Positions 4,751-61,067 of a stretch of DNA of 64,000 nt are shown here, in pieces. A program made the position numbers and the translations under genes. Every line of letters begins with the position of its first letter. The stretch's first letter is position 1. Origin of the DNA: a virus (Duplodnaviria; Caudoviricetes). The stretch covers positions 5,657 to 69,656 of IMG/VR virus record IMGVR_UViG_3300017774_005022; one strand, written 5' to 3'. The notes beneath the pieces were generated by a model that ran no database searches, was not told the DNA's origin, and was given only the letters and a program-made list of their open reading frames with translations.

Positions 4751-5554
4751 ATGACTTCGGAAGAACGCAGTGTGCTTAACGCAACTCGCAATTTGGAGCG
4801 AAAGCAACAAAGAGCAGAGGCTTCCAAAGCCTTGGAGTCCAAAAACGTAAATCTGCAAGAAGTTGCAAGGCAAGGCGGATCTTTGGGTAGGAAGATTGAA
4901 AGAGAAGTGAGGCGGTTTGAAGCGACAGGTAGGGTGAGTAATTGGCTAGCAGGAGAAACTGCAAAAGCGGAAGCTGCTCAAAATGCTGCTCAACAATCAG
5001 GTTTTAGTCCCCCCCGGTCACAACCTCCTTCAAATACCAATGTACCGCTAGCTCCTATACCACTATTGCCGAGTGACTACTTCTCCCCACGCCCTCTTGA
5101 TTTAAAACCGGATATTACCCCTCCGACTCCAGAACAAAGGACTTGTATTGGCCTTAATTTATATACCAAAAGTGTCATCGTTTCGCCCAACACGCCACCG
5201 GTCACCCAAGTATGGATCGGTGCTGGCGTGGTCGGCGGTGTGCTTCCCACCGGATTTACTTATTCTGAAGGAAAATTTGTAGCCAGCGGCGGTAGCGGAG
5301 AGGTGTATGTAGAACTAACAATTGACCAAACTACGGGAGAACTGGAGTCTGTGCAGATAGATGAAGCGGCCTCCACTCCCTCAAATACAAGTACGAAATT
5401 TCGCTACTCGCTGGGATATTACGAATACCTCAACGGTACGCCTGAAGTTACTAATTATAGCTGCGGAAGCGTAGATTACACTATATGCCGGAACTGGTTT
5501 ACCAGTACGCTCCCTTTTTATCAGGTCACTTTTTATAGAGCAGGAACAGCATAA
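4751..5554 (+). CDS. Hypothetical virion protein (basic helical N-terminus, Pro linker, beta-rich C-terminus)
   Basis: 267-aa ORF tightly coupled to its neighbours in the structural operon. Confidence 0.6.
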   Translation: MTSEERSVLNATRNLERKQQRAEASKALESKNVNLQEVARQGGSLGRKIEREVRRFEATGRVSNWLAGETAKAEAAQNAAQQSGFSPPRSQPPSNTNVPLAPIPLLPSDYFSPRPLDLKPDITPPTPEQRTCIGLNLYTKSVIVSPNTPPVTQVWIGAGVVGGVLPTGFTYSEGKFVASGGSGEVYVELTIDQTTGELESVQIDEAASTPSNTSTKFRYSLGYYEYLNGTPEVTNYSCGSVDYTICRNWFTSTLPFYQVTFYRAGTA

Positions 5555-10515: not shown

Positions 10516-11847
10516 ATGGCTGAAGAATCCCGCTCAACTTTTGACTTCTCCGATCAGTTTGGATCTGATCCGATTACTCGACGTTACCGCCCTACAAATT
10601 TAGTAGACATCCGTGGAGCAGAAGCGGGGGCACGTGAGGCGGCAGCTACTCGAGAATTGGCCGAAGCTAATCTAGCCAAAGTGCAAGCTGAGCTAACTGC
10701 TCAAATGGCTCCCATGAAAATGGGGGTGGAAATGGTTACTACAATGTCGGAATTGGTGAAAAACCGCGCTGCGATGCAAGAAAAATCTGCTATTAGCATG
10801 GCCGCAGCAACAATTTCCGAAGCTTTGGGCAACCCTAATCTTGATCTCAAGGGGTTGTCACAACTGGCATCCGGTTCTAATGCTATCGGGCTCCAAGATA
10901 CAGAGACAGGGGTGAGAGTACGCTCCCTTATGCTAGACAAATTTAGGCAGGCAGTGGACAATGCAGAATCGCCCTATGAAGTGGATACCATTTTTAGTTC
11001 CATTCCCTCAACATTGGCTGCTGAACCCCCGTTTGTTACCGCTCGCGCAAATGCTTTGTCACAAGCTAACTTGAGACAAGGGGTCCAGCAATCGTTCGCA
11101 TCTGAACCTTCTCTTGGTAAAGTACCTGTTACCCCAGCAGGTGGCGTTGATGTGCCGGGGGCTCAGATAAGCATTGCTGCCAAAGCAGGAGACCTAGAAA
11201 GGAGAAAAGAAGCTGGGGCCAATCTTAAATTTGTGCGGGACCAAATTGAGTCTTTGGAGCGTAAGGCAGCAACGGCAGATTTAACCCCAAGTGAACTTCT
11301 AGAACGTGAAACACTTGAGGCAGATGCACGTAGACTTTTGGGAATAGTAATGCAGCGAGATGTTTCAGAGGGGTCACAACCCACTGATTCCGCAGCCCCT
11401 CCGGGGGACAGGGTTGGGAATATCCTCCCACAGAGCGCGGTTACGGCTCCAGATCAAGCAGCAGCTGCATCTGCCGCAGCTACAGCTACTGGTGGTGCAA
11501 CGACTACGCCAGAGACTTCGGCTTCCGCCCCAGTCCCGACAGCACTTCCCTTAACTTTGGCAGAGGAAGCGAGACAAGCTGTCGAACAGGCACAGCAAGC
11601 CGAAATCCGCGCTAGCACGGCACCGGCTCGTGAAGAGAGACAAGTCGAGGCCGAAAGAAAAATCGAGGAAGGTACGCGGCTTATAAATTTAAGGAACCTT
11701 GTTAAGGAAAAATCTAGTCTTCTTAAAGCTATCTACGAGAATGAAGCAGGACAAAAACTTAAACCGGGAATAACCTCTGATTCAGATATTGTAAAACGTG
11801 TTCTGGCAAGAATTGCAGAGATAGATAAAGAACTTCCCAAAAAATAA
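10516..11847 (+). CDS. Putative internal virion (ejection) protein
   Basis: 443 aa, Ala-rich and helical; starts MAEESRS; directly precedes the giant internal protein. Confidence 0.55.
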   Translation: MAEESRSTFDFSDQFGSDPITRRYRPTNLVDIRGAEAGAREAAATRELAEANLAKVQAELTAQMAPMKMGVEMVTTMSELVKNRAAMQEKSAISMAAATISEALGNPNLDLKGLSQLASGSNAIGLQDTETGVRVRSLMLDKFRQAVDNAESPYEVDTIFSSIPSTLAAEPPFVTARANALSQANLRQGVQQSFASEPSLGKVPVTPAGGVDVPGAQISIAAKAGDLERRKEAGANLKFVRDQIESLERKAATADLTPSELLERETLEADARRLLGIVMQRDVSEGSQPTDSAAPPGDRVGNILPQSAVTAPDQAAAASAAATATGGATTTPETSASAPVPTALPLTLAEEARQAVEQAQQAEIRASTAPAREERQVEAERKIEEGTRLINLRNLVKEKSSLLKAIYENEAGQKLKPGITSDSDIVKRVLARIAEIDKELPKK

Positions 11848-38340: not shown

Positions 38341-39707
38341 TTTTCTGATTTTCTACTGTTGTTGAGGTCGAATTCAACACCCTCGAAGAAGGTGCTGAAG
38401 TGACCCCACGCAACCGGGATTCCGTGAACCTTCAACGAAGATTCATGCATGACCTGCAACGCAGGGTGCATTGGTTCCCGATAGCATGGGAATCAGTCCT
38501 TTTTTGTGTAGGTTAGCGTATCACGGGCATTCCACTCTCCGTAGAGTGGTCGTTTAACCGCTAACTTTCGTCCCTTTTTAACTCGGTAGGGATGGAGACA
38601 TCTTGCTCCGCTTCCAGCGTCCCCTTGTGCCATACCTAACACCCTTGATCCTGCACCCTGACCCACCATGGTATCCGACAGAGAACCGCCGTATTCGATG
38701 GAGACCGCAGGAGGATGCCGTTGGCACAAGGCACTTATGCGCCTTGGCTTCTGGCCTGCACAAGCCCCATGGCCCATGCTACCACCTTTACATCCGCTTC
38801 GGATTTGTCGCCCAACCAAAGGTTCGTGCAATCATAGTAGGCTTTGGTTCACCTATGTCGCATTCACGATACCCCCAGCAAAGGAAGAAACGGATTGAAA
38901 TGTCAAAGAAGAATCGGTGGGCAACCTGCATTTGCAGGCCGTTCGGGTTTTCCGTGATCACCGCATCGTTGCCGAGTCACAACCACCGACATTCTCTAAA
39001 CCGATCGGCAAGGTCTGGCCTTTCCTGCGCATTATGCACGCGAAGGCCGTGCGCGAGCGGCGAGCGCGTGGATCGTGGGCGATGCACCTGCGCCTGCGCA
39101 CCCACCACGCGGGTGGGTAGGTGACGGGGGACACGCACGTTTGCATTTATATATACACCCTCTGAGAAAAAATTTTTTGGTTTCCCGACCTTGGACCCCC
39201 TGAACCCATGAAAACGCCTCCTAGGGGCCAAAGAATCAAAAGTAGGGGGATCAGGGGGCTGGACCTAACTGTCGTTTTTTTTTGACAGTTCCGTACTGTT
39301 TAACCCGGAGGCCTCGGATCGACTCTCAGTTAACCTATTGCCGCCACCTCAAACCTTTTGTAAGAAAAAGACCCCATTATTTCCGTCAGAGTACTCTGTT
39401 ATTTGTTGGAAAACGGAGCGACCCCTGTACCCTTCACACCCCCTTATGCTGCTTTACGACCTACGAGGGTATCCTTTAACGATACATAACATTGCTGTTC
39501 TTGTAACAAAATGTAGCGAGTTTTTGGTACTAATCGAACACTAATGCGTTATAAATTAGTACATCATTTCATAACGGAGTAGAGAATCGCTAATAGTTCA
39601 AATTTGGCTTGGACTATTTACGATTCTGTACTCATTTCGCACATTTTCACGGGTCAACCCACATGTGAGACAAGTTGTCCCTTAATCAAAGGATCCGTTA
39701 TCACATT

Positions 39708-40109
39708 GGGTAGGGGAGGAAAAAGTCACCCCTACCCACCTACAGAGAAAGGGTAGGGGAGGAAATCGCAAAAAATTCCACCCCTACCCACCTTAAGTGC
39801 TTGATTTTCAAAGTACTTAACTGGGGTTGGGTAGGGGATGTAGGGCTTTTTTAAATTGATTGAAGATAAATTATAATATAAGGAACCGGGAAATCCCCGG
39901 CGGGCTGGAAAATCCCGCGTGGAGCCGCACGGTTTCCAAAAAAAGCCCTACATCCCCTACCCAATCGGGGTTAAGTCCCTTGAACCCAGGAACTTATGAA
40001 CAATTTTTCACCCCTACCCTCACCCCTACCCACCCCTACCCATTTATTGATAAACCCTTGGATCCAAGGAACTTAGGACTTATTTTTCCACCCCTACCCA
40101 CCCCTACCC
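39708..40109. repeat. Array of 11 CCCCTACCC nonamers in both orientations with a perfect 26-bp inverted repeat
   Basis: Copies at 39708(rc), 39729, 39751(rc), 39781, 39829(rc), 39954, 40011, 40023, 40033, 40091, 40101. IR 39827-39852 / 39939-39964. Confidence 0.9.
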
Positions 40110-40199
40110 AATCGCCCTCCGGGTTCGATATTCTTGAATACCAAATAGTACTGATAACTCAAACTCAATTTTAGCCGCCGGGATATGGTACCGAGCGGT

Positions 40200-40541
40200 T
40201 TATTTAGACTTTAGCCTACCCTTTTCGTCTATGGAGCCGTGGTACTTTTTAGACCAGCTTTCGGCGTCTTTGGGATTACTAAATGATGGGTAGTTGGAAA
40301 AGCCGTAGTCCTTTGCTGTTTTTACGGCTTGTTTGATAGAGAGATCCTTGCCCCCAACCATTGTTGGGATTACGAAGGTTTTGTCTCCCAGACCCACTGT
40401 GGCTAATTTGACATTACTTCTACTTCCGTCCTTATTACTTACAAAGGGATGGGGGGATGGGAAGCCCTTAAATTCAGGCGGGGTTGGGCGGAAGTCCTTC
40501 ATAGCACGCGCCAGTAACTTACTTTTACTTTCTTCGGCCAT
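40200..40541 (-). CDS. Small basic protein, leader class A (MAEESKSKLLARAMKDFRPTP)
   Basis: C-terminal NKDGSRS.V...FVIPTMVGG...F.NP.DAESWSKKYH domain. Confidence 0.7.
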   Translation of the reverse strand: MAEESKSKLLARAMKDFRPTPPEFKGFPSPHPFVSNKDGSRSNVKLATVGLGDKTFVIPTMVGGKDLSIKQAVKTAKDYGFSNYPSFSNPKDAESWSKKYHGSIDEKGRLKSK

Positions 40542-40555
40542 GGGGCGTTGACTGG

Positions 40556-41179
40556 CTAATACGCTGTCGGACGAATGGGGCCGATACGTGAAGGTAACCC
40601 ACTACCCACTGTACCCATACTGCCAAAAGCAACCGAGTCATCTAGAAATTGTTTAGCTGAAGGAGGACCTGCAAATGCCGCATCTCCCTTTGCGGCATTA
40701 ACTAGTCGCTTGGGCGCGTTGATGAGTTTTTTTCTGTATGCTTGATGCGCCGAACGAACTTGGTCGGTTATATCTTCCCAAACGCCGGGTTTCGTATGCG
40801 CTTTAACGGTTACCTCGTTTAGAGCTAGTGGGCGGGACAGATCTTTAATTTTAGATGACGCTTCAAGGATGAACCCCTTTTGCCCATACGCTTGCGACTC
40901 ACTGCCGGGTTTGGCTGCACCAACAGACCAGTAGACTTTGTCTTTTCGTGTTTTTTGAGCAAACTCCGGTGGACGTACTTGTCCAGATCGCACCATGTCG
41001 TCAATTTGTGAGTTCCCTGTTGTACGGCTTACACGCGAGTCATCCCAGATTCCAAATTTATTTGATGAGTCCAAAATCCTGCCATGTACAGATTGACGTG
41101 CAACTCGGTCGCTTTCCGGGGTTGGGCGGAAGTCCTTCATAGCACGCGCCAGTAACTTACTTTTACTTTCTTCGGCCAC
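40556..41179 (-). CDS. Basic protein, leader class A (GTG start)
   Basis: Identical 62-nt leader to 40200-40541, unrelated body. Confidence 0.7.
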   Translation of the reverse strand: MAEESKSKLLARAMKDFRPTPESDRVARQSVHGRILDSSNKFGIWDDSRVSRTTGNSQIDDMVRSGQVRPPEFAQKTRKDKVYWSVGAAKPGSESQAYGQKGFILEASSKIKDLSRPLALNEVTVKAHTKPGVWEDITDQVRSAHQAYRKKLINAPKRLVNAAKGDAAFAGPPSAKQFLDDSVAFGSMGTVGSGLPSRIGPIRPTAY

Positions 41180-41183
41180 AACG

Positions 41184-41588
41184 TTAACTCAACAACCCCG
41201 TCTCCCTGACTCCCATGTTTGGGGTGGTGGTATTCTTGAGGCTACGCATCCCCCTCTTCAGGGCCGACTCTCTCCGCAACCTGTCGAAGTCCGACTCCTC
41301 GCTGAGTTCGGCGTCTTTACGGGCTTTAGCCTCGTCCTGCAACTGCTGGAACTTGGAGGCCGCTGTGCCGACCGCCGATGGCTGGGAGTCCCCCACAGCC
41401 GCTGCGCCTACGGGGCTCTGGTAGTTGCTCCAAGAACGCTGGGTGGTGTTCGCCCCCGGACTGGCTTGGGGGCTGTACTGCCTAGATGCGTAGTAGAAGT
41501 CAGTGCCGACCTTGTCCTGATAGGGTTTAGGACCCTCGTAGTTGCTCCACGAACGCTGGGTTACGTTACTTTTAGTTTTTTCGGCCAT
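41184..41588 (-). CDS. Small protein with degenerate class A leader (MAEKTKS) and internal TQRSWSNY duplication
   Basis: ATGGCCGAAAAAACTAAAAGTAA vs ATGGCCGAAGAAAGTAAAAGTAA. Confidence 0.65.
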   Translation of the reverse strand: MAEKTKSNVTQRSWSNYEGPKPYQDKVGTDFYYASRQYSPQASPGANTTQRSWSNYQSPVGAAAVGDSQPSAVGTAASKFQQLQDEAKARKDAELSEESDFDRLRRESALKRGMRSLKNTTTPNMGVRETGLLS

Positions 41589-41600
41589 AATATCAGGATA

Positions 41601-41957
41601 TTATTTTTTTCCCGACTTAAGTTGGCCCATCGACCCTTCCTTAAGCATGCGCTCTAGGCGCACTTTGTCACTTGCTTCGTAGGAACGCTGTCTGGGTGAA
41701 TTACTGGATTTGTATCCCGAACCTTGTTTTGGGTAGTTGATCAGATCCATCTCGCCCTCCCGCATCATGCTCTCCGTGGACGGCATGATCATTTTGGCGT
41801 TCGGAATCCTCTTCACCGAAATCGTGGGGCCAGCACCGAGGTCACGCAGAATGCGGTCCCGCTTCCTCTGTTTCTCGGCAGACTCACGCCCTGCACTACC
41901 TGCACTGCGTGGTTTGGCTATATCAAAAAGGTCTTTGGCTTGTTTTAGTTTGTCCAT
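41601..41957 (-). CDS. Small basic protein, leader class B (KLKQAK..FD.AKPRS.GSAGR.SAE)
   Basis: N-terminus homologous to 42300-42821. Confidence 0.7.
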   Translation of the reverse strand: MDKLKQAKDLFDIAKPRSAGSAGRESAEKQRKRDRILRDLGAGPTISVKRIPNAKMIMPSTESMMREGEMDLINYPKQGSGYKSSNSPRQRSYEASDKVRLERMLKEGSMGQLKSGKK

Positions 41958-41961
41958 ATGT

Positions 41962-42294
41962 TTAGTACACGTTTGTTTCGAAATTTGATTTGGCTTTTGA
42001 CAAGAAAGATGAATCCACTCCCGACCCCTTGTTTGCGTTTGCCATCAACTGTCTCTTTTTTTCAAGATCTCTCTCGTAACGACCCACGTCAAAAACATCA
42101 ACGGGCCGTCCCGCCCCAACATTTTGTTCCATTCGCTCCTTACCTTCCCTACCCGCTTGTCGGTAGCCGAGGCTATCTTTAAGTTGACCCATAACCCCAG
42201 CCGTTTTTCCCAGAGGGTCAAGGGTTCTCTGGGTTGTACTAACAACGGTAGGACGTGGTCCCGGTACGGTGCTTGGTCTGCCTATGTTAATCAT
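41962..42294 (-). CDS. Small basic hypothetical protein (110 aa)
   Basis: Tandem ORF within the six-gene cassette. Confidence 0.6.
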   Translation of the reverse strand: MINIGRPSTVPGPRPTVVSTTQRTLDPLGKTAGVMGQLKDSLGYRQAGREGKERMEQNVGAGRPVDVFDVGRYERDLEKKRQLMANANKGSGVDSSFLSKAKSNFETNVY

Positions 42295-42299
42295 ATTAA

Positions 42300-42821
42300 T
42301 TATTTTTTCTTTTTATAAATGGGTTTCGCGCCCGTAAGTTTTGGCGGCAGTTCTTTCCCATCACGGTAGTATCTAGAAATTGAATCAGCCATTTCAGGTA
42401 ACATATTCATAGGACTTGTATATGTCTTAGTCGGTTGCTCGTATCCCGCATCCCCCATAATCCTACGTTCACGATTATTCAAACTATAGACTTCCTGCGG
42501 GTTTGTGGCACGACTAGTTAACTTTTTCAGCACCCGCTCTTTGGCCACAGGGTTTTCCTTCACTACATCAAAAGTGTCCCCGGTGGCTTGAAGCCTGACC
42601 TGACTCTTTACATCGTCCGCTAGTTTACCGAAATTTTTACCAGTGTACCTTACTTTAGGTTGTTCCGTGCTGTAAGAAACTTCGCGATCTAAGACACGTT
42701 CCCCCATTTCTGCCGCTGCTTTATCACGCGACTGCTCCGCAGACCCCCGCCCCGCACTGCCCTTGCTGCGCGGTTTGGCTTTATCAAAATATTCTTTGGC
42801 CTGCTTAAGTTTGTTGCTCAT
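42300..42821 (-). CDS. Basic protein, leader class B
   Basis: MSNKLKQAKEYFDKAKPRSKGSAGRGSAEQ; unrelated body. Confidence 0.7.
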   Translation of the reverse strand: MSNKLKQAKEYFDKAKPRSKGSAGRGSAEQSRDKAAAEMGERVLDREVSYSTEQPKVRYTGKNFGKLADDVKSQVRLQATGDTFDVVKENPVAKERVLKKLTSRATNPQEVYSLNNRERRIMGDAGYEQPTKTYTSPMNMLPEMADSISRYYRDGKELPPKLTGAKPIYKKKK

Positions 42822-42826
42822 ATCAA

Positions 42827-44980
42827 TTATTTTTTCTTGGTAAAAGTTTCCTCAACTGAAATTACGTACCAAGTTTTACCATGATGTGAGACATGACGCA
42901 AGACTCTACTTGAAGATCTGTTTGCCAACATGCGCAGTTCGCGGCCAAGTCTCACCGGAGTGTACCGCGACAGCAGTGGCTTGAGCATGCCCTCGTCCAT
43001 ACCCATGACGCTGGAGAATAGGTCAGTCGCGGTGCCCTTCCACTCCTTCTTGGTCTTCTCGTCACGGCGCACCCCGCTGGCCCACCGATCAAGGATCTCC
43101 TCTAGTTTGGTAGCAGCGGAATCCTCGTTGGCTGACTCAATCATCTTGGGATGATGATAGGGCCGTATCCCGAACCTTGGATTCTCGGACCACTCGACGT
43201 GGATGGGCGGTGAATAGTCGAGTAACCACCGCAAGAAGTGTGGTAATTCTTTTTTGATAATCTCCTCGTTCTCCTTATTAGAGGAAAACTTGTGCTGGTA
43301 GGGCTCAAACTGGAAAAGCATTATCTTATCGAGGATGTTGTTGTCCAGAGTAGGCAGAACCGACAGAGAATGGGCGTCAGTGTTGAGAGTTAAGCACATG
43401 CAGCCCGTCCACGGCAATTCTGTGGCATCCTTGAACTTTGGATGGTATATAACCGTGGGGTTGGCTACGTGGGACTTCAAAGACTCTGAAAACTGACGGT
43501 GTTTGTCCGGATCAATGGCCGATTGGGGGTCATCGACCACCCAGTGTGGGTGTTCGGCCACTGTCTTGTTGAAGCTGGTTTTACCCTGTAAATAGGGAGC
43601 GGCGTCCGCCCAACCACCCAGACTGTCGCCCATGACCTTGCGGTTGAACAGGGTTTTCCCCTGACCCGCATCGCCAGCCAACACAATCAACTGGCTTTGC
43701 ACGGGTTCGAACTCCAAGGCTGCTTTGTACTTGCGTTTCCAGTAGGCCAGCCAGTAGGGAAGTTGCTCTTCGCCGAAGCAAGACCAGACCCACTCTCTGA
43801 GCCACGCCCAAGTAGACTCATCTCCCGTATCAGCAGGAGCAATCGCAGTGCGGTAGTTGATATTAAGTATTCTGGTGTTGCCGACATCGACTATCTCCCG
43901 CTTGTCGAACAAGATCGGTGCCGCCGCGTCCACCCGCCTCTGGGTTTCGATTGCGTGGAGTACTCGGTCCATTTGAGATGCACCCTTCTTGGACTCAGTC
44001 TTGATCCCATGAACCCTGAGACTTCGAGCCACGTTCTCCACTTTCGCATCGTACCAGCGATTGGCTCCGTTCTTGAACCAGTACGCCTTGCCATCATAGT
44101 AGTACTCCATGACGGCTTTGCCGATCACCTCTTGACGGTACTGGTCAACAAACTGCTTACCCAGCAGGTCGGCCCAAGTCATAAACGATTTACCAGCACG
44201 ATCCGTGTAGCAGATAATCCCCGCTTCGGCTACCTGACACCCGATGCGAGTGATCCCATCGTTAAGCCAAAAGGTCGGGCCACGAGACCCCACAGTGAAG
44301 TCTCCCGGCCACGCTCCGGGCCAGCGAGCTTCGACTTCGGCGGCGATCTTATCAATAGGAATTTCGAGATCGCTCCCCGCGACTTTGTTCCAGTCCACCT
44401 TGCCGCTGGCTTTGACGATCAAATCCCCCATCACGGTATCGGCTACTCCGGGAGTACCGCTTACGGGTACCCAGCCGTGGCCGATCTCAAATAGCTGGTT
44501 GAGTCTGAAGGTGCATTCGTCGATCCCCGGAAGGACATTGCCCAGCTTGAACTTCTTGGCAATCTCCTTCATCAGATGCTTCGTCATCTCCGGACAGTCC
44601 ACCAGCACCGGAGAGTCGAACTGCCAGACTACACGGGCATTGCCGCTGAAAGTACGGCTGACCGCAGCAGGCATCGCGTCCGCATCACAACGTGCAAGTA
44701 TGTCCTGCAGGTTGAAGTTAGGATCGAGCTTCGCATCGTAGTCAGCAACGAGCCCGTGGAGCCACTTCGCCGGATTCTCCAGCGAGATGCGCTTGTGCGG
44801 GTTGACGCCCTCCGCTGCCGTGTAAAAGCAGTGGTCTACAGCTTTGTCGCGCACCCACTTATCGTAGTCATCTTTGGTAGCTACGTTGGCGGGGTATCCG
44901 GATGAAGTTGCCAGCCACGGGTCGCACGGCATTTCCTGCACGTCCGAGGAGGCTAGGTTCTTTGCGTAGAATGTTTTCAT
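42827..44980 (-). CDS. Primase-helicase (primase-like N-terminus plus D5/SF3-type helicase)
   Basis: GLVADYD...RTFSGNARVVW primase-like part; LAGDAGQGKT Walker A, WVVDD Walker B, LTLN. Confidence 0.85.
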   Translation of the reverse strand: MKTFYAKNLASSDVQEMPCDPWLATSSGYPANVATKDDYDKWVRDKAVDHCFYTAAEGVNPHKRISLENPAKWLHGLVADYDAKLDPNFNLQDILARCDADAMPAAVSRTFSGNARVVWQFDSPVLVDCPEMTKHLMKEIAKKFKLGNVLPGIDECTFRLNQLFEIGHGWVPVSGTPGVADTVMGDLIVKASGKVDWNKVAGSDLEIPIDKIAAEVEARWPGAWPGDFTVGSRGPTFWLNDGITRIGCQVAEAGIICYTDRAGKSFMTWADLLGKQFVDQYRQEVIGKAVMEYYYDGKAYWFKNGANRWYDAKVENVARSLRVHGIKTESKKGASQMDRVLHAIETQRRVDAAAPILFDKREIVDVGNTRILNINYRTAIAPADTGDESTWAWLREWVWSCFGEEQLPYWLAYWKRKYKAALEFEPVQSQLIVLAGDAGQGKTLFNRKVMGDSLGGWADAAPYLQGKTSFNKTVAEHPHWVVDDPQSAIDPDKHRQFSESLKSHVANPTVIYHPKFKDATELPWTGCMCLTLNTDAHSLSVLPTLDNNILDKIMLFQFEPYQHKFSSNKENEEIIKKELPHFLRWLLDYSPPIHVEWSENPRFGIRPYHHPKMIESANEDSAATKLEEILDRWASGVRRDEKTKKEWKGTATDLFSSVMGMDEGMLKPLLSRYTPVRLGRELRMLANRSSSRVLRHVSHHGKTWYVISVEETFTKKK

Positions 44981-51780: not shown

Positions 51781-52923
51781 TTAGGTTAGTGTAAGTACGT
51801 TGAACCACGTTTCAGCTTCGGATTTAGTCACGAGACCTTTGTAGTTTTGTTGGATAACTGTAGGTGAATTTCCACACTGTTCCGCTACTTCTGCTGCGTT
51901 TCGTGTTAAGGAAATTTGACACGAAATAAAAGTTTTACGCAACCCATTTTTTTTCCACGCGACCCCACTCCCACCCACCAGCTTTGAAATGTGGGTTGAA
52001 CAGCTATCCTGCAAAAATTTAGTGCAGTCCCTTAGTCTGGCTGTAACTGCGAGTTTTCGTAAGGTTTCTTCCACACATTTGGGAAAGTAAGCCACCCTAC
52101 CACGGTTGGTCTTGGTCAATTCTGGCCCAAGGATAAAAGCCCGTTCGTCCCAGTTGATGTCACTCCACTTCAAACGCTCAATTTCAGACATCCGGATACC
52201 CGCATACGCCCCCGCAATAAGCATGGGCAGGGATCGTTCGTCAGCCACAGCTACCAGTTTAGCCAGTTCCGCCGCAGTGAATAACTCAGGGCTTTTGTTT
52301 TTGAATTTCGGAAGTTCTGTCTCCTCAACACAGGATTTGTGGATGTAGTTCTGGTTTTTAGCCCATTTGAACAATCCACGAAGACTTGCCCGATGGTTAA
52401 ACCTAGTTCTCAGATCGATCATGTTCAACAGGTAGTCGTTTATTCCAGCGGAAGTTATCGCACTGATGTTGACACCTCCAAATTTAGTTGAAAATTTGTT
52501 CAAATGTTGTTGCAGAGTTTGTCGATATCTCGACCCTATGCCAGAATTGACCTTGACCGCTAGGTACCCCTGACATACTTTTTGAACCGTAATTGACGGC
52601 AGCAAATTGTGGGTTTGAGCGTAGTACTTGACTACCTCCTCTATCGGCACGTCCCCTACAACATGATCCCAACTTTTTTTGGACACAGCTTCCCGTTTAC
52701 GGGGTTCCTTGGGGGGATTACCTTCTCGGAACAATGTCATAATTTCAGTAGCTCGCGCCTCTGCGTCGAGTTGATCAGTAGTAGTTTCCCTAACTCGTTT
52801 ATCCCCTACGTACCACGAAATGGTGAACATATTACCACCGTCTTTAACTTGACGGTAAATAGTGATTTTGCCGTAGCGCGATTTGTGGACACGCGGCCAG
52901 TTCAGTGTTTGAGTCTGCTTCAT
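51781..52923 (-). CDS. int: Tyrosine recombinase / integrase
   Basis: AYAGIRMSEIERLKWSDI, TKTNRGR, NGLRKTFIS, GNSP.VI...Y; likely start ATG52923. Confidence 0.9.
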   Translation of the reverse strand: MKQTQTLNWPRVHKSRYGKITIYRQVKDGGNMFTISWYVGDKRVRETTTDQLDAEARATEIMTLFREGNPPKEPRKREAVSKKSWDHVVGDVPIEEVVKYYAQTHNLLPSITVQKVCQGYLAVKVNSGIGSRYRQTLQQHLNKFSTKFGGVNISAITSAGINDYLLNMIDLRTRFNHRASLRGLFKWAKNQNYIHKSCVEETELPKFKNKSPELFTAAELAKLVAVADERSLPMLIAGAYAGIRMSEIERLKWSDINWDERAFILGPELTKTNRGRVAYFPKCVEETLRKLAVTARLRDCTKFLQDSCSTHISKLVGGSGVAWKKNGLRKTFISCQISLTRNAAEVAEQCGNSPTVIQQNYKGLVTKSEAETWFNVLTLT

Positions 52924-52988
52924 GTGTTTAAAGTTGTGTGGGGCTACCTTGACTTCTCGGGCCAATCTTGTCAAAAACTTTTTTAACG

Positions 52989-54737
52989 ATGGCTTCAAAA
53001 AGTAAAATGGTGATGGTTTACGGACGGGAATTCCCTGCCGATATCACGTTGGTGACCTTGGAATTGAGTTGCCTCAATGATCCCCCTCCCCAGTCACCGG
53101 GGAAACTTTTCCACTTCAAACAAGTAGTGGATTTACTTTGGAACCATCCTGATTCCAAGATGCCGATCGAGTGGACGCCTTGGCTGGAGCGCATGATCGA
53201 GGCCGCTTTTGAACACAAGTACTTGGCGGTAGCTGGTTGCGCCAGTAGCGGTAAGTCCCAAGCGTACGCATTGTGGGCCATCGTAAATTTCCTCATGAAA
53301 CCTTGGGCCACGCTTGTTATCGTCACTTCAACAAGTTTAAAGGAGTCGCGGAAACGTATTTGGGGTGCAATTACCGACCTATGGCGAGCAGTTCCGGGGC
53401 TGCCGGGAAAACTAGTTGATTCAGTAGGCATGATCCGCATGGATGACGGCTCCGACACCAAATATGGTGATCGTTGTGGTATTGCCCTCGTAGCTGCTGA
53501 ACGTAAGAAAGAACGCGAGGCCGTGGGTAAATTGGTTGGTATCAAGCAGCAACGAGTGATTTTTATCGCAGATGAGTTGCCCGAACTCGGGGAGTCTATC
53601 CTCGAAGCCGCCTACACCAACTTGTCCAACAACCCATTTTTCCAACTCATAGGCATTGGCAACCCTGCCAGTTACTACGACCCCTTCGGTCAGTTCGCCA
53701 CCCCTAAAGACGGGTGGGGTTCAGTTACCGTGGAAGATGAGGAGTGGGAGACAGAACGAGGTCATTGCTTACACTTCGATGCACACAAGTCCCCTAACAT
53801 CATCGCCGGACACGTGGTGTACCCGTGGATGATAACCCCACAAAACCTTGCAGAAAGTGCGGATAAACTGGGAGACAACAGTCCCGGTTACTGGAGAATG
53901 TACCGTGGATTCTGGTGTCCGACAGGTTCGGATACCTCAATCTACAGCGAGTCTGACATCATCAAGTACGGAGCCGACCAGCGAGTTGAGTGGATTGACA
54001 AGCCCACCAAGGTAGCCGCTTTGGACCCCTCTTTCAGTGCTAACGGCGACCGCAGCGTTTTGTATTTTGGGTTTGTGGGAGTTAACATCAGTGGGAAGAG
54101 GGTTATTTGCCTTGATCACTACGAGGAGCTTCGAGAGGACGTGACCAACAAAGAGGAGCCTAGGGCTTTTCAAATTGCCCGACAATTTAAGGATAAGTGC
54201 GAAGCGTGGGGAGTAGCTCCCCAAGATGCTGCTTATGATGCCAGCGGAGGAGGTGCGCCCTTTGGTGACGTGGTAGATGCGCTCTGGTCCCGTAAGGTGC
54301 TTCGGGTGCAGTTCGGCGGTAAAGCCAGCGAAAAACCCGTGTCTCTAACAGACAGAGTACCGGGTCATGAGAGATACGCAAACAGAGTATCAGAGTTATG
54401 GTGGACAGGTAAGGAGTTGATACGGAATAAACAGCTATTCGGAGTGTGCCGGGAGTTGGTCCGAGAAATGACCGAACGACAGTACACCACGGAAAAAGGC
54501 TTGAGTATGCGTATACGAGTCGAAACCAAGTCGGATATGAAAGTTCGTATCGGCAAGTCTCCCGACATTTCAGACGCCGCTTTCATTTTAGTCGAGTTGT
54601 GTCGAACGAGGCACAAGCTAACCGCAATTGATAAAGTTGCCAACAATCCATATCAACAGGATGCAAGCTATAAAAAGTGGTTTAAAAAAGTTGACCTGAA
54701 CCGAAAAGCTAGTAAAACACTCACTTATGGGAGTTAA
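52989..54737 (+). CDS. terL: Terminase large subunit
   Basis: GCASSGKS Walker A, IFIADE Walker B, GIGNP, AALDPS...DRSV and SPDISDA nuclease motifs; start ATG52989 or 53007. Confidence 0.92.
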   Translation: MASKSKMVMVYGREFPADITLVTLELSCLNDPPPQSPGKLFHFKQVVDLLWNHPDSKMPIEWTPWLERMIEAAFEHKYLAVAGCASSGKSQAYALWAIVNFLMKPWATLVIVTSTSLKESRKRIWGAITDLWRAVPGLPGKLVDSVGMIRMDDGSDTKYGDRCGIALVAAERKKEREAVGKLVGIKQQRVIFIADELPELGESILEAAYTNLSNNPFFQLIGIGNPASYYDPFGQFATPKDGWGSVTVEDEEWETERGHCLHFDAHKSPNIIAGHVVYPWMITPQNLAESADKLGDNSPGYWRMYRGFWCPTGSDTSIYSESDIIKYGADQRVEWIDKPTKVAALDPSFSANGDRSVLYFGFVGVNISGKRVICLDHYEELREDVTNKEEPRAFQIARQFKDKCEAWGVAPQDAAYDASGGGAPFGDVVDALWSRKVLRVQFGGKASEKPVSLTDRVPGHERYANRVSELWWTGKELIRNKQLFGVCRELVREMTERQYTTEKGLSMRIRVETKSDMKVRIGKSPDISDAAFILVELCRTRHKLTAIDKVANNPYQQDASYKKWFKKVDLNRKASKTLTYGS

Positions 54738-54786
54738 GTCGGCAATCAAACCACTGCCGTAAACTTACCAAACTCGACAAAATCAC

Positions 54787-55674
54787 ATGCTTGTAATTAT
54801 CCCTGTCAGTGAAGCTGACGAGCAGATGGTCGGACCATCTTCGGAGTTGATCGCCAAACTAGGCGGCTGCCCCAATCATGATTTACTTGTGGTAGGTTCC
54901 ACAGATTGCCAGCCCTTGGTTAACGAACTCCACGCAAAGTTAAAAGGTCAATTCAGGGATACCTCCACTTACGTTTTCCAGTGTTTGGCGAGAGGTTGGC
55001 CGCTAGGACCTAATGCATATTTTCGCAATACTGTATCCTATCTGTACACAATAACAAATACGATTGACCAACCTTGGTATTGGTTTGAACTGGATAACAC
55101 ACCTCTCAAAAAAGGTTGGTTGGACGCCCTTCAAAAAGAATACGTTGCAGCACATGCGGTCTTCCTAGGAGCCAAACATGCTACTTACTATGTTGATCAA
55201 AATAACAAACTATTACCCAAAGGATATCACATGGCTGGTACGGGCATTTACCCCAAGAATTTCACGCAACTCTGTGATTTGTGGCGTTTTGAAGAGGGTG
55301 TAGCGTTTGATGTTTGGATTCAATGGGAGGTCATCAAGGCGGGGTTGACCGACACTCCTTTGATCCAGCATAACTGGAAAACTTGCAATTACCGTAGGGA
55401 GGGTGGGGAAATTGTCTGTGATAATTTTGACATGCCCCATCCAGATTTACACACCAACAAACCAATTTCTCCCGAAGCAGTTGTCGCCCATGGCTGCAAA
55501 GATCTTTCCTTGGCAAGGTTGCTTTTGTCTGAGCTAGGTGGTAATAAAGTCAAAACTAATTCTTCCCCCATTAGCGGGGATGTGGTAGAACCCGTTAAGT
55601 CAACAACCACCAAAAAGAAAATTGCGACAGATAGACGAGTGAAAAAAATTAAGAATAATTTAAAGCCTGAATGA
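54787..55674 (+). CDS. Putative glycosyltransferase-like protein
   Basis: VIIPVS start, WYWFELDNTPLKKGWLDAL, HMAGTGIYP, FDVW; basic tail. Confidence 0.45.
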   Translation: MLVIIPVSEADEQMVGPSSELIAKLGGCPNHDLLVVGSTDCQPLVNELHAKLKGQFRDTSTYVFQCLARGWPLGPNAYFRNTVSYLYTITNTIDQPWYWFELDNTPLKKGWLDALQKEYVAAHAVFLGAKHATYYVDQNNKLLPKGYHMAGTGIYPKNFTQLCDLWRFEEGVAFDVWIQWEVIKAGLTDTPLIQHNWKTCNYRREGGEIVCDNFDMPHPDLHTNKPISPEAVVAHGCKDLSLARLLLSELGGNKVKTNSSPISGDVVEPVKSTTTKKKIATDRRVKKIKNNLKPE

Positions 55675-57908
55675 ACGATACCCTTCTCCAAAACGTATCC
55701 GAAACTGGTGCGCCCCGTAGTCGTGTAAAAGATTCAAAGTCTTTGCACGAAATCTACCGCAAACTACGAGATGCGGACGATAAATCTTCAAAAAATCGCG
55801 CCGAAATCCAAGCGATGTTTGACGGAGTGCCTCCGTATAGCGATGTAGATCTTATGGCTAGTGGGCAATCCTACCGCTGTAACGTAAATTTTGATGAAGC
55901 CTCCACTATCCAAGAAAGCGCAATGGCTGGCTATGTGGATATTATCCATTCTGTAGAGCATCTCCTATCTTTAAAAACTGATCACGGAGACACCAAAACT
56001 CGTTTGGAGTATTCAAACGTTATTGCTGAAGAACTTACTAGGGCCATACGTTCGTGGCCGCAGTTTAACTTTAACTACCTCCTGCTCTGCCAGTATTTCG
56101 TCACTCATGGTGTGGGCATTGCGTACTGGGAGGATAATATCGACTGGCGTTGGCGCGTTTCGATGTTCGGCGATTTCCTTATCCCACGAAAGACTCTTGC
56201 GTGTGAAGACGAGATCGAAGTTGCTGTGTGCGTCAGGTCTTACCAAGCGCACCAGCTTTATCGCTTTATTGAGGATGCCGAGGCCGCTACCGACATGGGG
56301 TGGAACGTGGAAGAAGTTCGCAAAGCTTTGATTAAAGCCACTAACGGATCTACCGGAACTTTTACCGAGTGGGAAAAACTGCAGATCGAGTTGAAGAATA
56401 ACGACTTGTTTACAGGCACTGCAAACGCCTCAGAAGTAAAAGTTATCCACGCTTGGGTTAAAGAGTTCGATGGTTCGGTGTCCTATTACATGACTCTTGA
56501 GAATAATGAGTCGGAAGGTTTTCTCTGCGTTAAGCGCAGTCTTTACGATCACATCAATAGCGCGTTCGTCTTCTTCCCCTACGGCATTGGCACCAACGGC
56601 TACTATCATTCAATTCGAGGACTAGGCTATAAAATTTTTCCCCAAGTACAACTCAGCAACCGCCTCCGCTGCCAGATGGCAGACGGGGCAATGTTGAGTT
56701 CCACGCTACTGCTCCAGCCCCAGAACGAACAGGCACTTGAAGATCTAAACTTCACTTACTATGGTCCCTACTCCGTACTAGCACCGGACATGATTAACGT
56801 TGTCCCCAACGCCATGCCTGACGTGAGTAGGACCGCCATGCCGTTTTTGCAGGATCTTTCTGCTCAAATGCAGAGTAAAACTGCGAGCTATGATTCCGCG
56901 TCCGCGATATCGGACACCCGAGAGAAATCTAAACTGGAAGTACAGTCCATTCTCTCTAGCCAAGCGCGACTTTCGGTCGCCTCACTGAATCTGTTCTATG
57001 AACCTTGGGGCCGAGTACTCAAGGAAATGGTTCGCAGGTTTGTTCGGGGTGGGTACATGTCCGACGAACCGGGGGGTCGCGAAGTTCAAGATTTTTACAA
57101 TCGATGCGCTTTGCGGGGTATTCCTGTAGAAGCTATCCTCGCTGTCGACCTTAATTCCGTACGTCCTGTGCGAGCAATTGGCGCGGGTTCTGAGGCTGCC
57201 CGACTCCTAGCTACCAACGAGTTGATGGAACTTATGCCCGGTTTTGACGAGTATGGTCGTAAAGCCGCTCAACGAGATCGCGTTGCCGCACGATTTGGTT
57301 ATGATTTGGCGGATCGATACACCCCTGCTCCCGATGCAGAAGCGCGACCTGTTATCGATGTTAAGATCGCTGAACTCGAAAATGGAGACATGCGTTCCGG
57401 AAACCAAGTTCAGGTCCTGCCAAACGAAAATCATTTGGAACACGCCAAAGTTCACCTCGCCGCTCTGGGTCAGACCGCACAAACTGTAGAGGCAGGCCAA
57501 GCCCCAATCGAACAGGTAATTGACTTCCTTGTTAACCTGTACGGCCACGTCACTATTCACGTGGAGGAAGTTTCAAAGGATGCGACCATGCCCGAAGCTG
57601 GTGCAGCATTGAGGAAATCACTCCAGCAATTCGGGGAGATTATTAATAACGGGGTCAAACAAGTTCAAAAATTGCGGGAGCAACAGGAAAATCAAAGTGC
57701 TCCCGGAGCGGAAATGGCTGCTGCTGAGCAACAGTCTAAATACGCGGACACCCTCCAGCAAAAATTGCAGGAACATCAGGCCAAGTTGCAGATGATGCAG
57801 GAAACCCATCAGATGCGCTTGAATTTGCGTCTGGCAGATGTTCAGCAAAAATTAGCCTTGCGTGACGCAGAAGTTGCTAACAAGATCTCCAAGCAAACAC
57901 TCGTCTAA
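55671..57908 (+). CDS. Portal protein
   Basis: 745 aa after terL; F.LLCQYFVTHGVGIAYW, GYYHSIRGLG; helical crown C-terminus. Confidence 0.8.
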   Translation: MNDTLLQNVSETGAPRSRVKDSKSLHEIYRKLRDADDKSSKNRAEIQAMFDGVPPYSDVDLMASGQSYRCNVNFDEASTIQESAMAGYVDIIHSVEHLLSLKTDHGDTKTRLEYSNVIAEELTRAIRSWPQFNFNYLLLCQYFVTHGVGIAYWEDNIDWRWRVSMFGDFLIPRKTLACEDEIEVAVCVRSYQAHQLYRFIEDAEAATDMGWNVEEVRKALIKATNGSTGTFTEWEKLQIELKNNDLFTGTANASEVKVIHAWVKEFDGSVSYYMTLENNESEGFLCVKRSLYDHINSAFVFFPYGIGTNGYYHSIRGLGYKIFPQVQLSNRLRCQMADGAMLSSTLLLQPQNEQALEDLNFTYYGPYSVLAPDMINVVPNAMPDVSRTAMPFLQDLSAQMQSKTASYDSASAISDTREKSKLEVQSILSSQARLSVASLNLFYEPWGRVLKEMVRRFVRGGYMSDEPGGREVQDFYNRCALRGIPVEAILAVDLNSVRPVRAIGAGSEAARLLATNELMELMPGFDEYGRKAAQRDRVAARFGYDLADRYTPAPDAEARPVIDVKIAELENGDMRSGNQVQVLPNENHLEHAKVHLAALGQTAQTVEAGQAPIEQVIDFLVNLYGHVTIHVEEVSKDATMPEAGAALRKSLQQFGEIINNGVKQVQKLREQQENQSAPGAEMAAAEQQSKYADTLQQKLQEHQAKLQMMQETHQMRLNLRLADVQQKLALRDAEVANKISKQTLV

Positions 57909-58426: not shown

Positions 58427-59632
58427 ATGAGTACAGAAAATACAGCTAATACAGCAACCGAAACCAGCACGTCTCCCACTTCTGCGGCAGACTTAACCCA
58501 GTCCCTGACAGCGGAAACGCCATCATCGACTGTAGACAACGTACCAACCGGAGATTTTGCTTCGTGGCTGGACGATAAATTTAACAGTTTTGAAAAGGGT
58601 CAAGAAGTTGCTCCTTGGGATAAGAAAGAGGAGACGGAGTCCGCAGAGAGTTCAGAGGAGACTAAAACAGAAACCAAGACAGAAGAAGTCGAGGAGAAAT
58701 CCGACACTGAAGAATCGGATGAGGAAGCTGTAAGTGAAGATACCAAGACCATGACGGGGTCTGCGGGAGCTAAATTTAAGGAGCTTAAAACTGAGCTAAA
58801 ATCTTATAAGTCGAAGATTGCAGAGATGGAGAAAATGTTGGCCGACAGAGAAACCCAATCGGGTAACTCTGAAGAATCTTCCCAACAGCTTGAAACTCTA
58901 AAAGCCAAACTCGATGAATACGAACGCGAAATAGCCGTTTCGAGGATTGAAGCTTCCCCTCAGTTTAAAGAGGCAGTTATGGGGCCGACCCAGATTATTT
59001 TGGACTCTGCCATCTCTCTGGCCGAGAAATACGAGGTAGCCCCGAGAAAACTTGTGGATGCCCTGCGGGAAGAAAGTGCAGGAGATGCCTCAGATTCTCT
59101 GACCGAAATGGCAGCTGACTTTAGTGAAAGAGATCGTATCCGGCTCTATCGCATGGCCGACGATCTGGCAGAAGTTTCGCGTAGGCGCGACTTCCTTAAA
59201 CAGAACGCGGCCAAAGCTATGGCCGAAATGACCGAGAAGCAACAAGCTTACGAGGTCGAGGCTGAGAAGAAATATCGTGAAGAGTCACTTAAAGTAGCCA
59301 ATACAACGTGGTCGGAGACCTTTGAGAACAACCCAGTTATCCAGTCCCTCGGAGAGGAAATTGTAAAAGAGTTGCGTTCTTCAGCCACCGAAAGCGATCT
59401 TCTCGACACCGCTCCGGAAGAACGTGCGTACGCTGTGTACGCTGGTGTGGCCCTACCCCACCTTGTTAAAAAATACACTGAAATTGCTAACAAACTAGTC
59501 GAAACTGAAAAAGCTCTCGGCAAGTATAAAAAAGCCACCCCTAAAGTAAGTGGTAACGTCGACACTTCTTCACAGAAGCAAGAAATCGGCGGCTTCTTAG
59601 ATGCGATTGAAAAAAGATTCATATCGGGTTAA
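58427..59632 (+). CDS. Capsid scaffolding protein
   Basis: Acidic disordered N-terminus, long coiled coils, directly upstream of the capsid gene. Confidence 0.8.
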   Translation: MSTENTANTATETSTSPTSAADLTQSLTAETPSSTVDNVPTGDFASWLDDKFNSFEKGQEVAPWDKKEETESAESSEETKTETKTEEVEEKSDTEESDEEAVSEDTKTMTGSAGAKFKELKTELKSYKSKIAEMEKMLADRETQSGNSEESSQQLETLKAKLDEYEREIAVSRIEASPQFKEAVMGPTQIILDSAISLAEKYEVAPRKLVDALREESAGDASDSLTEMAADFSERDRIRLYRMADDLAEVSRRRDFLKQNAAKAMAEMTEKQQAYEVEAEKKYREESLKVANTTWSETFENNPVIQSLGEEIVKELRSSATESDLLDTAPEERAYAVYAGVALPHLVKKYTEIANKLVETEKALGKYKKATPKVSGNVDTSSQKQEIGGFLDAIEKRFISG

Positions 59633-59891: not shown

Positions 59892-61067
59892 ATGGCATAT
59901 ACCATCGACTCGTGGCTGGCTGCGGAAAGCGGACGCATCGGCCCCGATATTTACAACAAAACTTTGAACACGTCACCGTGGTTGAAGTTGGTCAAACAAG
60001 ATACGTGGCCCGACGAAATGGGCACCGACATCTCGGTTCTGACCTATTCCCGCTCACTGCCTGAAAGTGCAGACGCCCGTCTAACGTGGAACTCGGTCGG
60101 ATTCAACAACAACTCCAGCGGTGGAACTTGTGTTCCTTCGGCCACCCAAGTTAAGTTCTACAACAAGCTCGTTAGCTACAATCTGAAGCAGACTGCTATT
60201 GAGTCTCCTCCGATCTGCGTTAACGATCTGCGTTTCTCGTTCCGCCGTAAAGACCAGCTGAGCAACATTTTCCGTATCCTTACGGAGAATACCTCGTGGG
60301 CTTGGCAGACGCGCTATCGTGACGAGTACCTCCGTCTGTCCAACAACAAGATTCTGGCTAACGCCTCGATGACCTCCGGCACGGCGAATTTCCCTGCTGC
60401 TGAGCCTACTTCGAAGCTGGTCCAAGGAATCCTTGAGAAGATCCGCATGCGCCTCATCCGTGACGGTGCTGGCAATGATCCGCTTGGTCGCGAGAACGGC
60501 ACTCCGGTGTTCGGCCTCGTTTGCTCCAGTGAGACCTCCTTCGACCTCATCCGCAACCTTGCGGCTGATCGCGAGGATTATCGCTACAGCACCAAAGCCA
60601 ACGATCTGCTTGCTCCCCTCGGTGTCGAGCGTACCTACAAGGGCTTTTATCATCTTATCGATGATTTCATGCCCCGGTATTCCTACAGCGGCGGAACCTA
60701 TACGGAGATTCCTCCGTATGTTAAAGCCACTGCTGGTGGAGTTACCGAGTGGATCGTGAACCCGGCTTACGAACTGGCCCAATATGAAGTCTCCATTGTG
60801 TTCCACAAGGATGTCTATCATTCGGTCATTCCGGCCCCGATCACCAGCCCCGGCGGAAGCACGGCTTTCGATCCGGTTTCTTATCGTGGTGAGTTTAAAT
60901 GGCTCAACATCCGTGATAAGGCAGAAAATCCAGACGGAACTATCGGATATTTCCGAGGCATCCTATCTGCTGGTTCCAAGCCGATCCGGCCTGAGTGGGG
61001 TTACGCGATCATGCACACCCGTTGCGGCAACAATTTGGTTGCATCGCAGCTGGTCACCTGCTCCTAA
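59892..61067 (+). CDS. Major capsid protein
   Basis: 391 aa after the scaffold; strongly biased high-expression codon usage (TCC/CGT/GGT/ATC). Confidence 0.88.
   Translation: MAYTIDSWLAAESGRIGPDIYNKTLNTSPWLKLVKQDTWPDEMGTDISVLTYSRSLPESADARLTWNSVGFNNNSSGGTCVPSATQVKFYNKLVSYNLKQTAIESPPICVNDLRFSFRRKDQLSNIFRILTENTSWAWQTRYRDEYLRLSNNKILANASMTSGTANFPAAEPTSKLVQGILEKIRMRLIRDGAGNDPLGRENGTPVFGLVCSSETSFDLIRNLAADREDYRYSTKANDLLAPLGVERTYKGFYHLIDDFMPRYSYSGGTYTEIPPYVKATAGGVTEWIVNPAYELAQYEVSIVFHKDVYHSVIPAPITSPGGSTAFDPVSYRGEFKWLNIRDKAENPDGTIGYFRGILSAGSKPIRPEWGYAIMHTRCGNNLVASQLVTCS

Follow-up and report, generated by a model that had tools for sequence, protein, structure and literature searches.

A variable cassette of small basic phage proteins and an N-terminal leader shared by unrelated bodies

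The window analysed here is a 64-kb stretch of IMG/VR record IMGVR_UViG_3300017774_005022, a tailed-phage genome on a single contig of 69,656 bp that is rated complete. Right after its primase/helicase gene it carries a cassette of six small tandem open reading frames (ORFs), g1 to g6 (40200-42821), which an earlier sequence-only reading had described; they lie head to tail on the minus strand with gaps of 4-14 nt. The cassette is a highly variable accessory locus encoding small, basic, hydrophilic proteins. Two of these, g4 and g6, begin with a shared N-terminal module, the class B leader, which is maintained by selection on its peptide and which stands before at least four unrelated bodies among the relatives of this phage. 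We tentatively favor the reading that leader B docks exchangeable small basic proteins on a conserved phage partner during head assembly, by which they would be packaged and enter the cell with the DNA. A second shared N-terminus, class A, is found on g1 and g2.

The class B leader and its bodies

The class B leader opens g6 (42300-42821, minus strand; 173 aa, body B1) and g4 (41601-41957, minus strand; 118 aa, body B3). The g6 copy (42714-42821, minus strand; about 36 aa) consists of a helix followed by KPRSKGSAGRGSAE, and the g4 copy (41859-41957, minus strand) matches it as an 80-nt repeat at 79% identity. The N-terminal module spans about 30-35 aa and is made up of an amphipathic helix and, behind it, KPRSxGSAGRxSAE; its consensus can be read as xxKLKQAKEYFDKAKPRSKGSAGRxSAE; the KPRSxGSxGR core is invariant across lineages. 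The hydrophobic moment of the class B helix exceeds that of 97.5% of shuffles. That of class A is unremarkable, being reached by 242 of 2000 shuffles.

Over 26 codons of the g4 and g6 leaders, 12 are identical, nine carry synonymous changes and five carry replacements, which reproduces exactly the counts reported before. A Nei-Gojobori comparison of 29 codons in six genes gave a synonymous divergence (dS) of about 1 or saturated, a nonsynonymous divergence (dN) of 0.02-0.51, and, for pairs with estimable dS, a dN/dS of 0.01-0.28 (0.09-0.16 for the g6 leader against the others). Because synonymous sites are saturated while the peptide is kept (dN 0.02-0.27), the class B leader is under strong purifying selection as a peptide and is not conserved as DNA, in agreement with the sequence-only reading.

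A pattern scan and a protein search located leader B in relatives on four kinds of bodies: B1 (g6-like), B2 (P0013-17 and L004), B3 (g4-like), and B4 (a 90-aa protein of L002). Without the leader, each pair of these bodies has a profile-profile probability below 1%. Leaders of 30 aa that are 100% identical stand on unrelated bodies in g6 (B1) and P0013 (B2), and again in P0010 (B1) and P0014 (B2), while leaders are only 83% identical between proteins with the same body; leader subtypes thus group by phage lineage and not by body. These two sets of comparisons show that bodies have been swapped by recombination behind a lineage-specific leader B at least twice. The proposal of a swappable leader is therefore borne out for class B, whose leaders in relatives are not tied to one body. 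Full-length homologs of g6 share 58-87% identity. A metagenome pattern scan with the leader B core returned only 10 matches, all of them out of frame and attributable to chance.

The B4 protein has an unusual arrangement. It is encoded by the first cassette gene of the close relative G002 (L002 12157-12429), and in it the leader B helix is apparently present twice, as MGDQYKTVFEKVK... and ...LQARAEAYDKVK, followed by PRSKGSAGR. As a result of this doubling the KPRS motif is internal, yet an N-terminal helix is kept.

The class A leader, the g2 family and the origin of g1

Class A is defined by an exact repeat, in which 40479-40540 equals 41117-41178 over 62 nt (100%); it encodes (M/V)AEESKSKLLARAMKDFRPTP, and the leader reads MAEESKSKLLARAMKDFRPTP. 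One copy (41117-41179, minus strand; the repeat plus the first base of GTG) begins g2 (40556-41179, minus strand; 207 aa, GTG start), and the other (40479-40541, minus strand) begins g1 (40200-40541, minus strand; 113 aa). The two proteins have no similarity beyond codon 21, which confirms that one identical leader is carried by two unrelated bodies. It is extremely improbable that the repeat is an assembly artefact joining strain variants. Such an artefact would fit with the g1 chimera being known with leader A from this contig alone; against it, the two copies differ in their flanks and in their first base (ATG versus GTG), the second copy lies 14 nt after the g2 stop codon, the junction is an in-frame 9-nt microhomology, and g2 with leader A, in its MAEESKS form, is independently present in P0018 and P0023.

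Judged from the homologs, the g2 family has the class A leader as its native N-terminus, and this leader is not a general tag. Homologs of g2 retain LLxRAMxDFRPxPE as an integral part of the protein, and the 233-aa forms have a different extension of about 30 aa ahead of it. Protein searches with g2 (restricted to proteins of 113-363 aa) and with g1 (restricted to 62-198 aa) found leader A on no other body, and scanning IMG/VR DNA for the pattern of the leader A core returned g2 homologs only. The portability that had been proposed for both leaders thus does not extend to class A, which occurs outside its own family solely on the g1 chimera.

How g1 arose can be read from its other half. The nucleotide sequence of the g1 body is 94% identical to the last ~290 nt of a gene that encodes 492 aa and belongs to L037, a 31-kb viral contig of an unrelated kind, and in a three-way alignment g2, g1 and the L037 gene share only the 9-mer CCAACCCCG, which lies at the junction (40479-40487, the last 9 nt of the g1 leader copy) and is in frame. 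The close match and the shared 9-mer indicate that g1 formed by microhomology fusion; it consists of the first 21 codons of g2 joined once, very recently, to a captured C-terminal domain. The L037 protein (4801-6279) ends in a domain 92% identical to the g1 body at the amino acid level, and its 400-aa N-terminal part has no family match. This level of identity indicates that the g1 domain moved recently between different phage types.

The captured domain (40195-40487, minus strand; about 90 aa, VIPTMVxGK...YPxF...H) is found both as a stand-alone protein and inside large phage proteins. A profile of it collected 1363 clusters at 50% identity, from stand-alone proteins of about 100 aa up to a length of 3517 aa, with proteins of 1600-3500 aa among them. 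Two of the large proteins match ART-PolyVal, P0048 above Pfam's cut-off (59 bits) and P0083 below it. The profile also matches, at 50 bits, residues 263-339 of SPN1S_0017, a 938-aa 'head / minor structural protein' of the epsilon15-like phage SPN1S that is encoded right after two 'internal virion proteins'. No polyvalent protein of the present genome contains the g1 domain. An AlphaFold2 model of g1 built on a 63-sequence alignment reached a predicted local distance difference test (pLDDT) value of 88 and consists of beta-hairpins and two helices, with the leader as a low-confidence helix; an earlier model from a 9-sequence alignment (pLDDT 60) was too poor and was discarded, its fold search being uninformative. 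The better model had no relative among solved structures (Foldseek E >= 1, VIA Z <= 3.6). Among predicted viral structures it matches domains in phage proteins of 700-1232 aa, whose names include large-polyvalent-protein-associated (LPD), transglycosylase SLT and tape measure.

Among homologs of the g1 domain, N-terminal extensions come in dozens of unrelated kinds or are missing, a variety that looks more like repeated capture than like a set of address tags. This bears on the alternative that the leaders have no addressing role and are constant 5' ends serving start and translation and acting as homology arms, the peptide being a small structural element. We consider this decidedly unlikely. 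It draws support from the extensions just described, from g1 itself, evidently a captured domain fused to the start of a neighboring gene, and from the g2 family, in which the termini follow the lineage while the middle part is exchanged; moreover, recombination within a leader would yield identical leaders on different bodies. Leader B accords poorly with it, since the saturated synonymous sites of the g4 and g6 leaders, with the peptide kept, mean that DNA homology is not what is conserved, and a module of 30-35 aa with an invariant KPRSxGSxGR core exceeds what a start context needs.

In two members of the g2 family, P0023 and P0026, about 150 aa in the middle of the protein appear identical on visual inspection, while the N- and C-termini differ, co-vary and follow the phage type. 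A shared middle between different, co-varying termini points to very recent mosaic recombination inside the gene.

Two further proteins had been connected with class A by their first residues. The cassette gene g3 (41184-41588, minus strand; 134 aa) does start with MAEKTKS, and its resemblance to the leader is limited to 25 nt at 88%, that is, seven residues. Outside the leader system, the 443-aa protein encoded at 10516-11847 (plus strand) does start with MAEESRS, as stated by the sequence-only reading, which called it the ejection protein; the match again covers seven residues and has an E value of 0.12 even within this single genome, and the ortholog in G002 has the same start though that genome is without a class A gene. 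Given the chance-level match and the retention of this start in G002, we rejected the link, and the 443-aa protein is unconnected to the cassette. Its gene lies upstream of that for a giant 2814-aa virion protein, and its product is 60% identical in G002 (other structural proteins: 86-96%) and undetectable in G001. This divergence marks it as a further fast-evolving gene of the virion region.

Gene context and variability of the locus

All six cassette proteins are basic (isoelectric point, pI, 9.4-10.2) and hydrophilic (grand average of hydropathy, GRAVY, -0.6 to -1.1). Searches of PHROGs and Pfam with g1-g6, and of NCBIfam with g2 and g6 only, gave nothing above threshold and one sub-threshold PHROG match. 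The gene content of the locus differs even between close relatives. G002, a complete genome of 70,180 bp with terminal repeats, has about 90% nucleotide identity to the window, and its primase (L001/L002) is 99% identical at the amino acid level, though the cassette behind it differs: it comprises three genes, for the 90-aa protein with the internal KPRS motif, a g5 ortholog (52% identical) and an 84-aa g4 ortholog that is 88% identical with a different C-terminal tail. The genes g1, g2 and g3 are absent anywhere in G002. In G001 (70,776 bp, about 70% nucleotide identity) the primase gene is followed only by a small membrane-protein ORF, with no cassette, and g5 is absent from that genome.

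G001 has one class B gene and one g3-like gene, both within the head gene block. The corresponding block of the window lies on the plus strand, as do its tail and virion genes, including that for the 2814-aa protein, which matches a virion structural PHROG. It contains TerL-like, p295, portal-like, scaffold-like and major capsid protein (MCP)-like genes. The assignment of the TerL-like gene (52968-54737, plus strand) is weak, at 31% identity over 120 aa to an annotated terminase; that of the portal-like gene (55671-57908, plus strand) comes from language-model features (0.97, SU10/P22-like portal clusters), and portal-like proteins had no match among PDB sequences. The remaining structural assignments, scaffold-like (58427-59632) and MCP-like (coat-like; 59892-61067), follow from gene size and order. 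The minus strand encodes an integrase, a helicase-exonuclease, DNA polymerase A and the DUF5906 primase/helicase (42827-44980, minus strand), with 5 nt separating its stop from the start of g6. When 50,697 phage records were searched at the DNA and protein level, the cassette region, the primase, the MCP-like and portal-like proteins, g1, g2 and g6 were unmatched, and TerL had weak matches only.

Four relatives (G001/L003, L004, L008 and L009), in which TerL is 80%, the portal-like protein 75% and the MCP-like protein 71% identical to the window at the amino acid level, have a class B gene between the TerL and p295 genes; in L009 it is a g6 ortholog (59% identity). G001, L004 and L009, the three in which this position can be read, carry a g3-like TQRSWSNY gene (39-46% identity over 54-56 aa) immediately upstream of the portal gene. 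The stretch from TerL to portal (52968-57908, plus strand) is thus the site that holds class B and g3-like genes in relatives. In the window and in G002 these positions are empty of such genes, which follow the primase instead. An unrelated phage type has g2 homologs (79% identity) in its structural gene row, where they follow the MCP gene and a gene for a 742-aa protein.

These arrangements bear on a reading that we hold to be somewhat unlikely, in which leader B docks to a non-virion partner (a host hub protein, or a phage enzyme such as the terminase or the replisome) and the proteins are newly made intracellular accessory or anti-defence factors, not cargo. It would account for genes that follow the primase in the replication string in the window and G002 and for a class B gene directly after the TerL gene in relatives; the locus varies in the manner typical of accessory, anti-defence regions, the KPRS motif can take an internal position, and the closest relative of the g1 body lies among early-type genes. 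It fits less well with class B genes in the head block of four relatives and g2 homologs in a structural row, or with the recurrence of the g1 domain in large virion-type proteins.

The p295 gene (54787-55674, plus strand) is conserved, and its function is not assigned by any family match: it had no Pfam, PHROG or NCBIfam family and no solved structure, and a profile search of PDB sequences was empty. All close relatives have it between the TerL and portal genes, with 52% identity in G001-type genomes (the L009 copy is at 3263-4144), and is flanked in relatives by class B and g3-like genes. The only relative in the species genome collection is L035, a 9.5-kb contig in a marine metagenome bin labelled Planctomycetes, with a TerL of 37% identity; it has a p295-like gene (5588-6403, 28% identical) just after its portal gene and no class B gene on the contig. 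We regard it as very improbable that leader B is recognised by a modifying enzyme serving many substrates, with p295 as the candidate. The gene order TerL, class B, p295, g3-like in relatives would suit such an enzyme, but p295 has neither a family match nor a counterpart among solved structures, 12 kb separate it from the leader genes in the window and G002, and L035 has a p295-like gene without a class B gene.

Several smaller features of the region can be added. The one cassette gene not yet described, g5 (41962-42294, minus strand; 110 aa), is without a shared leader. The g3 protein has an internal duplication, TQRSWSNY(E/Q)xP, encoded at 41413-41444 and 41530-41561 (32 nt, 88% identical), of which a weaker copy (63%; TTQRT) lies in the N-terminal part of g5 (42222-42253). 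An A-rich sequence upstream of g6 (42812-42845, minus strand) has a second copy upstream of g5 (42285-42318, 82% identical), and the same context precedes the first cassette gene of L002; a promoter and terminator scan of the cassette gave chance-level results. Directly downstream of g1, the gene-poor stretch 39700-40110 holds a dense GGGTAGGGG/CCCCTACCC repeat array and a 46-nt inverted repeat, which are kept in G002. A tyrosine-integrase-like gene (51781-52998; phrog_1, E 4e-28), divergent from the TerL gene, suggests a temperate lifestyle.

Comparison with known systems and proposed role

The internal proteins of T-even phages are diverse and have only a capsid targeting sequence (CTS) in common, anti-defence proteins being the presumed cargo (PMC3012670). 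The present cassette resembles the T-even loci in its small, unrelated bodies that share only a short N-terminal leader (four bodies for class B, two for class A), in a gene number and identity that differ between close relatives (six genes in the window, three in G002 and none after the primase in G001), and in the short repeated sequences that flank genes. Repoila et al. 1994 reportedly also saw the T-even cargo as anti-defence. The exchange of class B bodies, the variable locus and the head-block placement in relatives make the analogy with T4 internal proteins, drawn by the sequence-only reading, fit the genetics. The mechanism is another matter: the class B leader is 30-35 aa long, against about 10-11 aa for the T4 CTS, neither class resembles MKTYQEFIAE, and no L/I-x-E site closes either of them. 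A gp21-type protease was not found here; in the complete 69.7-kb genome the prohead protease families S77, S78, ClpP and S49 (PF03420, PF04586, PF00574, PF01343) had no match at E <= 1, a search that a very divergent protease could escape. Moreover, T4 is a myovirus, whereas this is a 70-kb phage with a predicted P22/SU10-like portal, and packaging of the small proteins is here a proposal from gene context. An unrelated and longer leader, closed by no L/I-x-E site, and the lack of a detectable protease indicate that the cassette is not a member of the T-even internal-protein system; it is best seen as a putative protease-less analogue.

Other systems share single features with it. For polyvalent proteins, packaging into the particle and injection have been predicted (PMC5512222, Iyer et al. 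2017). The g1 domain is a module embedded in such large polyvalent or internal virion proteins, two of which match ART-PolyVal, but g1 itself stands alone at 113 aa and the other five cassette proteins are without such a link. Podovirus ejection proteins are packaged in the head of short-tailed phages, released on infection and encoded in structural gene rows (PMC8954989). Examples are T7 gp14-16, with the small head protein gp6.7, and P22 gp7, gp16 and gp20. In P22, gp7 is synthesized with an N-terminal leader of about 20 aa that can be removed, and the T7 portal gene is immediately preceded by that for gp6.7, which is small and basic. The cassette differs in lying outside the ejection row, after the primase on the opposite strand, and in having no sequence similarity to these proteins; canonical ejection proteins are conserved and essential, whereas the cassette is not conserved even at 90% genome identity. 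Polymorphic toxin and effector loci likewise combine a constant N-terminal module with non-homologous C-terminal parts swapped by recombination at the junction, but the cassette proteins are very small and phage-encoded, with no recognisable toxin/immunity pairs or trafficking domains.

We return to the reading introduced at the outset, docking of leader B on a conserved phage partner in head assembly. Leader B would bind a conserved head-assembly component, perhaps the scaffold, the portal or the terminase; any small protein that follows it in the fusion would be incorporated into the particle and would enter the cell with the DNA. Loading by leader B would not need a dedicated maturation protease, and the bodies would be interchangeable proteins, either accessory factors that act early or proteins associated with ejection. 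Support for this comes from the variability of the locus, the exchange of modules, the selection on the peptide, the head-gene context, the presence of the g1 domain in large virion-type proteins and the basic pI. Several observations weigh against it. The cassette is the tail of a replication gene string on the strand opposite to the structural genes; the TerL, portal and MCP identities are based on weak similarity or gene position; and no S77, S78, ClpP or S49 prohead protease was found. Leader A is limited to one family and one chimera, and the KPRS motif of the 90-aa L002 protein is internal. Many stand-alone proteins with the g1 domain lack any N-terminal extension, and the nearest homolog of the g1 body, the 492-aa L037 protein, sits among early-type genes. 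Among the phage records searched, no cultured relative was found. A more specific version, possible though doubtful, is that leader B is a portable, protease-independent packaging tag of this 70-kb lineage with P22/SU10-like portals, whose cargo is co-injected and exchanged by recombination inside the tag.

Independent of function, the cassette documents modular protein evolution, with identical leaders on unrelated bodies in two sublineages, and the birth of a gene from the first 21 codons of its neighbor and a captured C-terminal domain, joined at a 9-nt microhomology. The g1 body is a widespread, unnamed domain of about 90 aa, with 1363 clusters; its fold is predicted with confidence and has no match among solved structures. 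Should leader B prove to be a loading signal, the T4 scheme, in which a single tag serves many injected proteins, would hold also for a lineage of small, uncultured phages without a protease. The leader would then also provide a sequence rule by which injected effectors of metagenomic phages could be found, as well as a new tag of 30 aa with which proteins could be loaded into capsids.

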